Positions 14,060 through 18,643 of a DNA stretch of 64,000 bases are shown here, piece by piece. The DNA is from an uncultured Lachnospiraceae bacterium. Its GTDB lineage: Bacteria > Bacillota > Clostridia > Lachnospirales > Lachnospiraceae. The stretch is taken from NCBI GenBank assembly GCA_947630005.1, contig CANRGB010000001.1, positions 5,119 through 69,118 of the forward strand, given 5' to 3'. Each line of letters begins with the position of its first letter. Position 1 is the stretch's first letter. The position numbers and the translations under genes were made by a program. The notes under the pieces are model-generated. The model did no database searches and was not told where the DNA came from. It was given only the letters and a program-made list of their open reading frames with translations.

Positions 14060-16991
14060 TTAAAATTTTAACCGGCCAAGCCGCACTTCTTCCATATAGC
14101 GCGCCATATCTTCATCGAGACTGTCAAACAGATAATTTCTCCCGCTGCTCTCCCGCCTGCTGCGGCAGACCTGACGGATCTGTTCATTCATGATCAGAAT
14201 CTCTTCCTTCAGATCCGACGCAGACAGTCTTCTCGCCCCCCTCGCCAAGGATAATGACCTGTTCCAGGCGGTCGGAGGTCGCCACGGTGACATGATAGCG
14301 TCTTCCGATCTCGCGCACGGTCTTCTCAATATACTGATCGGCCGTCTCCGCTTCCTTTGTGTAGACGATATAAATATTGTGATACTTTACAACTTCCCCT
14401 GTAAATCCTTCCACCTTGTACGCGTCAAACACCAGGATCAGCCGGCAGCCGGAAAATCCCTGATAATTGCAGAGAACGTCCATCAGCTTTGTCCGCGCGG
14501 CCGCGATATCCGTATCGGCAAGCTCCTTCAGCTCGTCCCACGCGAAAATAATATTATAGCCGTCAACCAGCAGATACTCATCCACAGGTTCCTGCTTCTT
14601 TGCCTGGCGGCCGGACGGACCCGCCTCGTTCTTTTCCGCCCCGCCGCCCGGACGGGAGGAATTTCTCTCCGCCGCGCCGGAACTTTTCTTTCCCGCGCCG
14701 CTCCCCGCCGCAAAAGTGCTTCCCTTCGTACGTTTCCACGCCGTCCGCGATTCCCCCGTGGAAGTCCCGTAAGTCCGGTCAAAAATCGCCTTCAGTTCTT
14801 CCTCGTCATGAAACCGGTCCGCGTACGCCGTCCCGGACGGCACACCCATCCTGCGCGGCGCTCCCGCGCCGGACGTATCCTCCGCCGGCGTTTCCTCCGC
14901 CATTCCCGCGCCGGCGTCAGAGTCCGCAAAAGACCGCCTGCCAAAGAGCGCTCTCTTTTTTCCGTCCCGATCCGTGACCCACTCCACGCCGCCCGAAACG
15001 TGCATGTAGGAGTCCGCCTTGTCCCAGCTCACCACGAATCCCGCCCCGTGCGCGCAGAAAACAGATCCCGTCGGATTCTCCAGGTCTCTCTCCGAATCGT
15101 ATCCGGCCGCCTCGATGATCTCCTCCGCGTTGTGGCACGGCCTGTACCCGTCAAGGCGGAATGCCAGCCGCCCGCGTCCCTTCGTGTACGCGCTGACCTC
15201 CGTCTGGTAGCCGCGCATCTCGGATACGGGCGCGCTCCCCGTCAGCACGGTCATATCGCCCGCGATCTCAGGCGGCTCGAAAGAACCGCACATGCGCTGG
15301 ATATCCGAGAGCGCCCGTCCGACCATCTCCGACGGGACCTCAAGGCGGAACGCGTAAAACGGCTCCAGCAGAACGCTCTCGGCCTTCTTCAGCCCCTGCC
15401 GCACCGCCCGGTAGGTCGCCTGCCGGAAATCTCCGCCTTCCGTATGTTTCAGGTGAGAGCGGCCCGCCGTCAGCGTGATCCGCACGTCCGTCAGCGGCGC
15501 TCCGGTCAGAACGCCGGCATGTTCTTTCTCCAGCAGATGCGTGAGCACCAGCCTCTGCCAGTTCAGGTCAAGATCATCGGTGCTGCAGGCGGACTCGACC
15601 TGGATCCCGCTCCCCGGCTCCCCGGGCTCAAGCAGCAGATGCACCTCCGCGTAATGGCGCAGCGGCTCAAAATGTCCGGCCCCCTCGACCGGTTCCCGGA
15701 TTGTTTCCTTATATACAATATTGCCCGTGCCGAACGTGACCTCCATCCCGTAACGGTCCCGGATCAGGCTCTGCAGGATCTCGATCTGCACCTCGCCCAT
15801 CACCTGCGCGTGTATCTCGCCAAGCTGCTCGTTCCACACGATGTGAAGCTGCGGTTCCTCCTCCTCGAGCTGCCGCAGTTTCTGCAGCGCCGTATGCGCG
15901 TCGCAGTCCTCCGGAAGGTCAATGCGGTAAGTCAGCACCGGGGAGAGCACCGGAAGCACCGTCTCCCGCTCAATGCCAAGTCCCTGCCCCGGCCAGGTCT
16001 TCGCAAGCCCCGTCACGGCGCAGACAGTCCCGGCGGGCGCCTCCTGCACCGGCTCGAATTTTGTCCCAGAGTAAACACGGATCTGATCCGCCTTCTCCTC
16101 CCAGATCTGATCCTCCGGAATTTCCTGGTCCATTCCGCCTTCCGGCGCCTCCGGCCGGCGGTTCGTCAGCACCATCCGCGCCCGCAGACTGCCACCGGTG
16201 ATCTTCATGTGCGTCAGGCGCTTCCCCTGCTCGTCGCGGGAGATCTTGTAAACCCTGGCGCCGAATTCCTCCGGATAAATCGGGGCAAGCGTATAGTCCG
16301 CCAGTCCCCCGATCAGCTCCTTTACACCGGTCAGCTTCAGCGCGGAGCCGAAAAAGCACGGGAACACTTTCCGCTCCCGGATCATCCGCGCCGTGTCCTC
16401 CTTCGTCACTTCGCCCGTCTCCAGGTAACGCTCCATCACGTCCTCGTCGCACATCGCGAGATTTTCAAGAAATTCTTCCGAACTGTGATCCTCTCCAAAA
16501 TCAATGCAGTTTCCGTCCAGCCTGCGGACAAGCTCCTCCATTCTTGCTTTCCGGTCCGTCCCCGGCTGGTCCATTTTATTTACAAATAAAAAAACCGGCA
16601 CCCGGTACTGCGCGAGCAGTTTCCAGAGTGTCTCCGTATGTCCCTGCACGCCGTCCGCGCCGCTGATCAGAAGCACAGCGTAATCCAGCACCTGCAGCGT
16701 GCGTTCCATCTCCGCCGCGAAATCCACATGCCCCGGCGTATCAAGAAGCGTCAGCTCCATATCTCCGAACGTAAGCCGCGCCTGCTTGGAAAAAATCGTG
16801 ATCCCCCGCGCGCGTTCCAGCTCAAACGTGTCGAGAAACGCGTCTTTGTGGTCGACGCGTCCCATCTTCCGGATACTGCCGCCAAGATACAGCAGAGCTT
16901 CCGACAGAGTTGTTTTTCCCGCGTCGACATGGGCGAGGATGCCAAGGCAGATATGTTTTCCAGACTTTCCCTTTTTCGTCTGTTCTCCCAC
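14060..16991 (-). CDS. EF-G/TetM-like translational GTPase fused to a C-terminal NYN (YacP/Rae1-like) RNase domain; apparent +1 frameshift near the C-terminus
   Basis: GTPase motifs AHVDAGKT, RGIT, DTPGH, NKMD; EF-G-like domains III-V; NYN motifs LLVDGYNIIFAW, VFDA, ETADQYIEK, VATSD. As read, the ORF ends at 14184; the natural-looking tail (GARRLSASDLKEEI...LGRLKF) is in another frame ending at 14060. Confidence 0.88.
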
Positions 16992-17148
16992 AAAAATGCC
17001 TCCTCTCGTAAAAATACTTTGTCAAGTATATCACAGGAAGAAGCATTCGTCGAGGTATCGCTCCCTATAAGAGCAGGAACTTTTTGGTCTTGTCTGGTTC
17101 TTGTGTCCTCACGGGATTTTGCGCCGGGACCCGCGGGCAGATTCCGGA

Positions 17149-18258
17149 TCACGGCGTTATCCGGCCAAAGCCCAGCTTCCGGGCCAGTCCCAGGGACGCT
17201 GTATTCTGCGGATGAATCCTGACCAGAACCGTATCCGAGTGCAGCACGGCAAACGCGTAATCCAGCACCGCCCGGCACATCTCATATGCAAAGCCCTGCC
17301 TGCGATAATCCTCCGCGACAGCATAGCCGAGTTCAAGGCAGAACGGTTCTTCCGCGCTCCCGGGCAAATGTTCACGCACAGCGTCCTTCCTTAGGACAAC
17401 GTACCCGTTATCCTCCCCTGCTTCATAATCCTTCAGACCACAGCGGCCGATCACCGTTTTCTGGCGGCCCGATTCCATCCGCTCGACGGTCCAGTACCCA
17501 TATCCGTAAAACGGATAAACATTCTTAATATAAGAACAAAATTTTTCTTTTTCACTGTCCTCTTCCGAAATGCAGAAGCCGGTCTTCTCCTGTTTTTCCC
17601 GGCTCTCCCCGCAAAACTCCGGAGCCGATTCCAGCTGATAAACCGCCTCAAAATCTTCCGGTACGCTTTCGCGGATCAGCAGACGCTCCGTGCGGGCTAT
17701 CACAACCGGATCTCCGTAAAAACGGCAGCAAAACTGTTCGAGTTCTTCCGGCTCCCTCTCTTCAAAACTCTCCCACACCATCCGGACATGTGGAAAATAT
17801 CCGGAGGCTGCGCCTTCTTCCCGTCCCGCCGTTTCTGCTGACGTTTCTTTCGCTGCTTCCGTTTCTTTCGCTTCTGCTGCTGCTTCCATTTCTTTCGCTT
17901 CTGCTGCTGCTTCCGTTTCTTTCGCTTCTGCTGATTCTTTTGTTTCTGCTGCCTCTTCCGCTGTTTTCACTTCTGCTGATTCCTTCCCTTCTGCCGGGCA
18001 GTATCCGACACAGGCAATTTTCTGCAGTTCGCAGAGTCCGGCCGCTTCCGCATCATCCGTGATCACCAGAATCCGCCGGGCAGAAAGCGCAAAGGAAGGC
18101 TCCGACGGATCCGCCGGAACATCCGCCCCGTTTTTCTCATTTTTCCCCGTTTCTTTGCACATATGGCAGGGGATTCCCCGCGCCTTCAGTTTCCGCATAA
18201 AAGAAACGCAGTCTGCCCGATGGCGCTCCTGTTTCATATAAAATAGTATCTGATTCAT
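17149..18258 (-). CDS. GNAT (RimJ/RimL-like) acetyltransferase with an N-terminal extra domain and Ala/Glu repeats
   Basis: TERLLIRE, GYGYW, IGRCGL, LELGY.VAEDYRRQGFA, NTASLGLARKLGF; RBS GGAGG before ATG18258; 27-bp repeats at about 17850-17935. Confidence 0.82.
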   Translation of the reverse strand: MNQILFYMKQERHRADCVSFMRKLKARGIPCHMCKETGKNEKNGADVPADPSEPSFALSARRILVITDDAEAAGLCELQKIACVGYCPAEGKESAEVKTAEEAAETKESAEAKETEAAAEAKEMEAAAEAKETEAAKETSAETAGREEGAASGYFPHVRMVWESFEEREPEELEQFCCRFYGDPVVIARTERLLIRESVPEDFEAVYQLESAPEFCGESREKQEKTGFCISEEDSEKEKFCSYIKNVYPFYGYGYWTVERMESGRQKTVIGRCGLKDYEAGEDNGYVVLRKDAVREHLPGSAEEPFCLELGYAVAEDYRRQGFAYEMCRAVLDYAFAVLHSDTVLVRIHPQNTASLGLARKLGFGRITP

Positions 18259-18348
18259 TTTTCCTCCGATTTCCGTTCCGGTCTGATATACAGAGTTTCG
18301 TTCCTGATCATGATACCATAATACGCTCAAAAAAATTTAAAAAAGTGC

Positions 18349-18422: not shown

Positions 18423-18496
18423 CGATGCGTGGCTCAGCTTGGTAGAGCGCTGCGTTCGGGACGCAGAGGTCGCAGGTTCAAATCCTGTCGCATCGA
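18423..18496 (+). tRNA. tRNA-Pro (CGG)
   Basis: Acceptor stem CGATGCG/CGCATCG, anticodon arm CTGCG-TTCGGGA-CGCAG, T-loop GGTTCAAATCC; CCA not encoded. Confidence 0.95.
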
Positions 18497-18572
18497 CTCC
18501 TTGGCAGGGGCAGCGGAACCCTTGATAATCTGGGGTTCCGTTTTCTTTATAAAAATATCGAATATAAAATAT

Positions 18573-18643
18573 GCGGGTGTAGTTCAATGGTAGAACACCA
18601 GCCTTCCAAGCTGGACACGTGGGTTCGATTCCCATCACCCGCT
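18573..18643 (+). tRNA. tRNA-Gly (TCC)
   Basis: GCGGGTG/CACCCGC acceptor, anticodon arm CCAGC-CTTCCAA-GCTGG, GGTTCGATTCC. Confidence 0.96.

Follow-up and report, generated by a model that had tools for sequence, protein, structure and literature searches.

A TetM-like GTPase fused to an NYN_YacP ribonuclease in Lachnospiraceae: a candidate clostridial form of Rae1

Layout of the fused gene and the break in its reading frame

The stretch of DNA analysed here (the window; 64,000 nucleotides from an uncultured Lachnospiraceae bacterium) carries on its minus strand a gene that joins an EF-G-like translational GTPase, through a long disordered linker, to an NYN_YacP endoribonuclease core of the Rae1 type. 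The fusion is real, and the gene is a member of the TetM-like-NYN_YacP family catalogued by Atkinson 2015 (BMC Genomics, PMC4342817) and Matelska 2017 (NAR, PMC5499597), with whose members it shares the architecture and groups in both the GTPase and the NYN trees. For Matelska 2017, which recorded it in certain Clostridia, the role of the fusion was unclear (PMC5499597); the 2015 and 2017 surveys listed about 10 species and left the function open (PMC4342817, PMC5499597). The present analysis adds the scale of its occurrence in one family (about 100 of 120 genera). Unlike the catalogued fusions, the copy in the window is frameshifted 58 codons before its end, its GTPase and NYN core still lying in one frame. 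The gene and its signals, all on the minus strand, are arranged as follows (pLDDT, predicted local distance difference test).

17025-17053, minus: promoter-like site TCGACG-17-TATACT with TG (consensus match only)
16999-17004, minus: Shine-Dalgarno sequence AGGAGG, 7 nt 5' of the GTG start (sequence read directly)
14060-16991, minus: whole gene as encoded by intact relatives, 976 codons if read through the break; in the assembly, frames 14184-16991 and 14060-14329
16293-16958, minus: G domain, residues 12-233 (Pfam GTP_EFTU), with motifs G1-G5 and a short G' insert as in Tet proteins
15999-16265, minus: EF-G domain II, residues 243-331 (Pfam EF-G_D2, AlphaFold2)
15729-15941, minus: EF-G domain III, residues 351-421 (Pfam EFG_III, AlphaFold2)
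15378-15722, minus: EF-G domain IV, residues 424-538 (Pfam EFG_IV), with family-specific, nearly invariant tip loops GH.EPLRHYAEV and G..H.KHTEGGDFR
15129-15374, minus: EF-G domain V / EFG_C, residues 540-621 (Pfam)
14937-15128, minus: family-specific folded C-terminal module, residues 622-685 (alignment, AlphaFold2)
14583-14936, minus: disordered G/A/S-rich linker, residues 686-803 (pLDDT below 50)
14763-14810, minus: short conserved helix within the linker, residues 728-743, HDEEELKAIFDRTYGT (alignment, AlphaFold2)
14238-14582, minus: NYN_YacP (Rae1-type) catalytic core, residues 804-918, with D810, D856, D885 and D907
14236-14241, minus: run of six G (C6 on the plus strand), the frameshift site, one base above the frame of all relatives
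14063-14236, minus: remainder of the NYN domain on its C-terminal side (Pfam profile positions 111-165), read in the shifted frame as ARRLSASDLKEE...RLGRLKF; stop codon at 14060-14062

The longer open reading frame (ORF; 14184-16991, GTG start at 16989-16991) encodes 935 residues. The features that the initial annotation had listed, namely an EF-G-like GTPase with domains II-V, the segment SVFCAHGAG, a linker of more than 100 residues and the acidic NYN motifs, are all present according to Pfam and the motif positions. AHVDAGKT, RGITI, DTPGH, NKMD and GSAL lie at residues 20, 62, 84, 138 and 215, respectively, and SVFCAHGAG, VDGYN, VFDA, ETAD and TSD at residues 643, 809, 854, 882 and 905. The G3 motif DTPGH keeps the catalytic His, and G1-G5 with this His, together with domains II-V, place the protein in the translational GTPase superfamily, of which it seems to be a competent member. 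The Pfam cut-offs are passed by GTP_EFTU, EFG_III, EFG_IV and EFG_C, and EF-G_D2 scores 25 against 27.

An AlphaFold2 model (72 family members; mean pLDDT 86, predicted template modelling score 0.73) is confident at residues 8-686, which cover the GTPase and the C-terminal module, and at residues 800-922, the NYN core. Between them the pLDDT falls below 50 at residues 687-728 and 744-799, on either side of the short helix (residues 728-741 in the model), in which at least 90% of family members retain E732 and I736. The top Foldseek matches of the model are ribosome-bound EF-G structures (E about 1e-53). The G/A/S-rich stretch as a whole spans residues 666-803 (138 aa); across the family FC..G.G and VDGYN are separated by 76-208 aa (median 110), and the linker is always present and always disordered.

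The interval 14060-16991 had been treated as one protein at the outset, and the break at the G6 run, which divides it into two frames, was overlooked. In the longer ORF the match to the NYN profile ends at position 116 of 166, and it resumes at positions 111-165 in the ORF at 14060-14329 (26 bits). Intact relatives, 72-83% identical, pass through the region in a single frame, ...EQVIILG(D/E)GARRLSASDLKEEI...NYLFDSL...RLGRKKF, with VIILG(D/E) followed in the same frame by GARRLSASDLKEE. The window reads GAG GGG GGC GAG, with one extra G in the run. The assembled 935-aa product is without the last 58 residues, and reading through with an X at the break gives 976 aa. The missing stretch is the C-terminal part of the NYN domain, which in NYN_YacP proteins consists of two helices with conserved basic residues (Matelska 2017, PMC5499597); here it is not in the same polypeptide, and in all relatives examined it is in frame.

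The frameshift may be either an assembly error or a recent mutation, the latter possibly weakening or abolishing the nuclease half. It is possible, if doubtful, that the insertion in the G6 run is real and leaves this genome with a partly disabled allele or a pseudogene that broke recently. The frameshift stands in the assembly, and the public protein record for the contig is the same 935-aa product. Other long ORFs of the window, of 1266, 1526 and 745 aa, run without a break, which indicates that the assembly is not full of indel errors and that the break may be real; this counts against a working gene at this locus. On the same ground, we rejected the idea that frequent errors throughout the assembly produced the frameshift. 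Against a genuine break, the 58 shifted codons are free of stops and about 49 of 57 residues match relative P0005 (manual count, compared with 80% for the whole protein), so that the shifted stretch bears no sign of decay. In addition, the genome assembly consists of 222 contigs and is 83% complete, a homopolymer miscall is a common artefact, and the genome holds no second NYN_YacP copy that would compensate.

In at least two other sampled genomes the fused gene likewise appears to be interrupted, with the GTPase and the NYN domain in adjacent separate frames (G228:C2:126183-128749 and G099:C41:29065-31757). Breaks in the fused gene may recur across genomes, or these two cases may also be assembly errors.

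The nuclease half and the spread of the fusion

The NYN core aligns with YacP/Rae1 of B. subtilis (PDB 5MQ8/5MQ9) at an E value of 1e-22, about half of the 114 aligned residues being identical, and scores 143 bits with the Pfam profile NYN_YacP (PF05991; residues 807-920, profile positions 1-116) against a cut-off of 24.6. D810, D856, D885 and D907, in VDGYN, VFDAY, ETAD and TSD, are invariant or at least 90% conserved in the family. NYN_YacP proteins are characterised by four conserved acidic residues and by a GYN motif that follows the first Asp (PMC5499597), and both are found here. The window nuclease thus shares with Rae1 the NYN_YacP fold, the GYN motif and the four conserved Asp residues. 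Its setting is different: Rae1 of B. subtilis is free-standing (the crystallised chain has 181 aa), whereas the NYN domain of the window lies C-terminal to about 800 aa of GTPase and linker.

All of the best 120 matches listed by a word-indexed search have the fusion architecture (896-1075 aa), and the window protein is 61-83% identical to the listed public proteins of this architecture. Among the 150 best representatives of 50%-identity clusters, about 137 are at least 830 aa long, and more than 130 such clusters share the architecture. The named organisms with the fusion are Blautia, Oliverpabstia, Diplocloster and Monoglobus, the last on a plasmid-collection record.

The distribution was assessed in the following samples: (i) One genome from each of 120 genera of the Lachnospiraceae. 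NYN_YacP occurs in 107 of them, always in a single copy, which is fused in about 100 and free-standing in 6-7; 13 have none, and no genus has both forms. Contig ends truncate a few of the fused copies, and in one (G077) the GTPase half has diverged very far. (ii) A class-wide sample of 150 genomes from about 57 families of Clostridia, with 51 fused and 44 free-standing NYN_YacP domains and no genome with both. (iii) The window genome, where the fusion is the sole NYN_YacP. The architecture is therefore widespread, as had been supposed from the window alone, both in the Lachnospiraceae and in many other families of the class. The proposed check, whether genomes with the fusion lack a standalone Rae1, was run on all three sets, and none of the fusion-bearing genomes has one.

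The genomic position of the free-standing gene agrees with this exclusion. In the window genome, the slot after cysS-mrnC-rlmB has no yacP and TrkH/TrkA-like genes follow directly, whereas in the relative G060 a free-standing yacP occupies the same slot, with a sigma-factor gene after it at the sigH position. The ancestral slot being empty in the one and filled in the other, the fused gene stands in place of a free-standing Rae1, and in most genomes of the family the fusion has replaced it. In the NYN tree, the fused NYN domains and the free-standing ones of the Lachnospiraceae fall on one side of a branch with 97% support, and all other free-standing NYN domains on the opposite side. At least two fusion or fission events are forced by the tree branches; neither the GTPase tree nor the NYN tree resolves the basal branching.

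Earlier surveys proposed rRNA or tRNA as the substrate (PMC4342817, PMC5499597), in which case the nuclease would serve in maturation or in the destruction of defective ribosomes, with the GTPase positioning it. Such a role would suit the operon cysS-mrnC-rlmB-yacP, in which the free-standing gene lies beside rRNA-processing and rRNA-modifying genes, as well as the genes for an RsmF-type 16S rRNA methyltransferase and a RimJ/RimL-type GNAT upstream of the fusion in the window. The close match of the NYN core to Rae1 tells against it, and we consider it unlikely.

The fused gene of G077 (L028:1129-4065, on G077:C10) has a well conserved NYN half (151 bits) and a very divergent GTPase half (tree branch 4.3), in which the domain-IV loops of the family and the C-terminal module are lost. 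Judged by these losses, its GTPase half looks to be decaying while the nuclease is retained.

The GTPase half in relation to Tet proteins and EF-G

As judged from its sequence, the GTPase half is neither a tetracycline-protection protein nor an EF-G, and belongs to a clade of its own beside the Tet proteins. Its best NCBIfam model by score is tet_protect (NF012153), with 400 bits against a curated cut-off of 775; it lies far below the cut-offs of the Tet allele-level models, and the EF-G model TIGR00484 gives 289.8 bits against 659.4. In tblastn alignments the protein shares 28-31% identity with Tet(O), Tet(M), Tet(S), Tet(Q), TetB(P) and Otr(A)-like proteins, about as much as with EF-G (26-28%). 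In a tree of 58 GTPase sequences (643 columns; IQ-TREE quick search under LG+C20, with RF3 as outgroup), the fused proteins fall together with their unfused relatives in a single clade (98 in the Shimodaira-Hasegawa-like approximate likelihood-ratio test, SH-aLRT), which is sister (94) to the Tet clade (99), with EF-G outside (99).

The loops of domain IV set the three groups apart. The tip loop reads Y(Y/F)SP(V/A/S)STPADFR in Tet proteins, GSYHEVDSSEMAFK in EF-G and (R)AH.KHTEGGDFR in the fusion family (RSHLKHTEGG in the window), and SPxST, found in six of six Tet references, is absent here. The residue numbering of the Tet tip loop is reportedly that of Donhofer 2012 and Arenz 2015. The corresponding versions of loop I are PPNPFWA, GGRGQYGH and EPLRHYAEV. 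In Tet proteins the tip loop Y(Y/F)SP(V/A/S)STP has been described as dislodging tetracycline (PMC4342817). Across 138 family members at about 45-65% identity, the GTPase motifs, including the catalytic His, and the domain-IV loops are invariant or nearly so; this near-invariance of family-specific loops points to a conserved ligand in the decoding centre.

A second distinctive element is the C-terminal module of about 50 aa after domain V, with the consensus GY..C(H)N..E.I....YD...D..N...SVFC.HGAG..V.W.....MH. In the model (pLDDT above 90) it folds into two helices, the second of them short, on either side of a beta-hairpin that contains SVFCAHGAG. The module is absent from Tet proteins and EF-G, and the unfused members of the family end just past it. 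It has no Pfam match, and an Atlas search with residues 612-686 gave only scores below 0.9. C619, C646 and H664 (window 15003-15137) are conserved, H620 and H648 are often present, and these residues could form a metal site.

Tet(M) and Tet(O) have the five-domain EF-G-like GTPase, the short G' insert, G1-G5 and the DFR motif of domain IV in common with the window family; they differ in the YSPVS loop and the Tet C-terminal segment, in place of which the family has its own loops and its own module. They are also mobile, whereas the window gene is chromosomal and lies among housekeeping genes, and its family occurs in nearly every sampled genus. EF-G and EF-G2 have the same overall fold, and a His of the window family occupies the position of the EF-G domain-IV tip His; on the other hand, GGRGQYGH is replaced by EPLRHYAEV, overall identity is low (see above) and the G' insert of the window protein is shorter.

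In the view suggested by Atkinson 2015 (PMC4342817), the fusion is a tetracycline ribosomal-protection protein with an acquired RNase domain, dislodging the drug in the manner of Tet(M) and Tet(O), perhaps with the aid of the RNase. The ranking of tet_protect, the shared G' insert and DFR motif, the sister relationship to the Tet clade and the Tet name used in public annotations would fit such a protein, and yet we consider it very unlikely. The score is about half of the cut-off, the family is hardly closer to Tet proteins than to EF-G, the drug-dislodging loop is replaced by H.KHTEGG and the Tet C-terminal segment by another module. Moreover, several Lachnospiraceae genomes with the fusion also carry separate genes of 639-644 aa at 30-32% identity, the sampled ones of which fall in the Tet clade, and the fusion itself is distributed like a vertically inherited housekeeping gene, with housekeeping neighbours. 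An anti-phage or toxin-like system that stops translation by cleaving RNA on ribosomes is most improbable. Translation-targeting nucleases are common in defence systems, but nothing specific beyond the domain types was found here; PADLOC gave no match, and the gene is single-copy in nearly all genera, lies in a housekeeping context outside islands and replaces the housekeeping gene rae1.

Public records name these proteins 'TetM/TetW/TetO/TetS family tetracycline resistance ribosomal protection protein', 'translation factor GTPase family protein' or 'NYN domain-containing protein'. The initial annotation warned that a 'tetracycline resistance' label would be misleading, and the curated cut-offs, the loop residues and the tree, in which the family is separate from Tet(M/O/Q/B(P)) and Otr(A), all argue against that label. 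Thousands of fusion genes in gut metagenomes are automatically annotated as TetM/TetW-family tetracycline resistance, and resistome counts are inflated as a result.

Other relatives of EF-G were encountered in the same genomes. The window genome encodes an EF-G paralogue of about 691 aa (L003; G000:C24:24415-27774) with the degenerate motifs GHGGAGKTS (G1), RKFSIST (G2), DTPGY, where the catalytic His is missing, and VSNMD (G4); it forms a group with a similar G060 paralogue, apart from canonical EF-G. A set of EF-G/Tet-like proteins of 644-679 aa, 32-35% identical to the query, occurs in L033 (G091:C12), G159:C91, G190:C160 and G236:C13. All four genomes have a free-standing NYN_YacP, and the G091 protein forms a long branch beside the Tet clade; the set may be a third related family.

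Proposed role and genomic surroundings

The gene is probably the clostridial form of the ribosome-associated endoribonuclease Rae1, acting in stall-coupled mRNA cleavage with the GTPase providing the targeting. The fusion is the only Rae1 homologue in the genome, and it therefore presumably takes over the role of Rae1. On stalled ribosomes, Rae1 cuts the mRNA at a point 12 nt upstream of the A site (PMC12407103), and collision-induced tagging by transfer-messenger RNA (tmRNA) depends on it (2026 preprint, PMC13622287); how Rae1 itself locates stalled ribosomes is not settled (PMC12407103). We infer, as the initial annotation did, that the GTPase delivers the tethered nuclease to such ribosomes. 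In its GTP-bound form, the EF-G-like module would bind a stalled or collided ribosome at the factor site, with the tip of domain IV reaching the decoding centre. The disordered linker of 60-190 aa between the two halves would serve as a tether that raises the local concentration of the nuclease, and the mRNA would be cut at or behind that ribosome. GTP hydrolysis would then release or license the factor, and the truncated mRNA would pass to trans-translation; the window genome does encode SmpB, in a copy cut off at a contig end.

SmrB of E. coli, Cue2 of yeast and the Hbs1-Dom34 pair offer a functional analogy, not homology (background in PMC12407103 and PMC13622287). SmrB and Cue2 are mRNA endonucleases that act at stalled or collided ribosomes through SMR domains and have no GTPase, and Hbs1 is an EF-Tu-like GTPase that recognises the stalled ribosome and has no nuclease, whereas the fusion carries both activities in one polypeptide.

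Several points weigh against this reading of the gene, in addition to the intact ORFs mentioned above. In seven Clostridia genomes of the class-wide sample (G136, G254, G183, G213, G151, G164 and G247), the GTPase occurs unfused (45-51% identical, 633-671 aa, with a complete C-terminal module) and NYN_YacP is absent. A further unfused homologue (644 aa, 49% identical) is encoded on the megaplasmid pR1 of Ligilactobacillus salivarius (L006:3980-5914). The two modules are thus not obligate partners, each being able to work by itself, the GTPase has a function of its own in Rae1-less genomes, and the idea of delivery is weakened a little. The fusion could also join two factors that act at the same place, with no 'delivery' by the GTPase, and the ribosome bound could be a leading one with an empty A site (Tet-like) or a rotated trailing one (EF-G-like), a choice that is not derivable from the sequence. 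ARAGORN found no tmRNA in the window genome (83% complete). Finally, no functional study of any member of the fusion family was found in the literature; in this the initial annotation was right, although the fusion itself had already been noted in both surveys (PMC4342817, PMC5499597).

We rejected an obligate partnership of the two halves after it had held in the Lachnospiraceae, where the GTPase is alone in no sampled genome and all 13 genomes without NYN_YacP are also without the GTPase; G033, G060, G078 and G083 of this family have an unfused GTPase of 654-658 aa and a free-standing NYN domain at separate loci. Class-wide, the rule is broken by the seven genomes named above, and only two of the 44 genomes with a free-standing NYN domain (G155 and G268) have both unfused. 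A substitute nuclease beside the unfused GTPase genes was also rejected: their neighbours vary (SpoIVA, a DinB-type polymerase, a glycosyl hydrolase, LarA and others), with no nuclease among them. On pR1, an extra rpsN (S14) and the gene for a small 'putative metal homeostasis protein' lie beside the unfused gene in divergent orientation, which may hint at a link to alternative ribosomal proteins.

More tentatively, the GTPase half may represent a family of ribosome-surveillance factors, distinguished by the loops EPLRHYAEV and H.KHTEGGDFR of domain IV and by the C-terminal module with its Cys and His residues, that recognise stalled or collided ribosomes by themselves. This would make the fusion with Rae1, the form found in most gut Clostridia, a GTP-gated no-go-decay enzyme in a single polypeptide. 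Recognition by the GTPase itself would explain its unfused survival in Rae1-less Clostridia and on megaplasmids of Lactobacillaceae; hydrolysis would in that case license or proofread the cleavage of the mRNA before trans-translation.

As a clostridial form of Rae1, the fusion bears on a nuclease that has recently become central to collision rescue in Gram-positive bacteria (2025 NAR paper, PMC12407103; 2026 preprint, PMC13622287). In the dominant gut Clostridia, Rae1 occurs almost only as a fusion to a predicted ribosome-binding GTPase; the fusion is therefore a natural starting point for asking how the nuclease is recruited. The fusion also points to a new branch of translational GTPases.

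The genes around the fusion in the window comprise, upstream, those for the RsmF-type methyltransferase, tRNA-Pro and tRNA-Gly and the RimJ/RimL-type GNAT and, downstream, a cluster of a yaaO-like decarboxylase gene, tmk, holB, yaaT (PSP1), a methyltransferase gene and rsmI. No mobile-element genes were found among the flanking genes examined. A tet(M)-like regulatory RNA or leader upstream of the gene was considered and rejected, Rfam having found only the two tRNAs in the window. These, tRNA-Pro(CGG) and tRNA-Gly(UCC), lie at 18423-18643 on the plus strand, in an AT-rich gap between the GNAT and RsmF-type genes. The GNAT gene, directly upstream of the fusion (17149-18330, minus strand), encodes a 393-aa protein with an Acetyltransf_3 domain at residues 216-388, preceded by an N-terminal extension of about 215 aa without a Pfam match.

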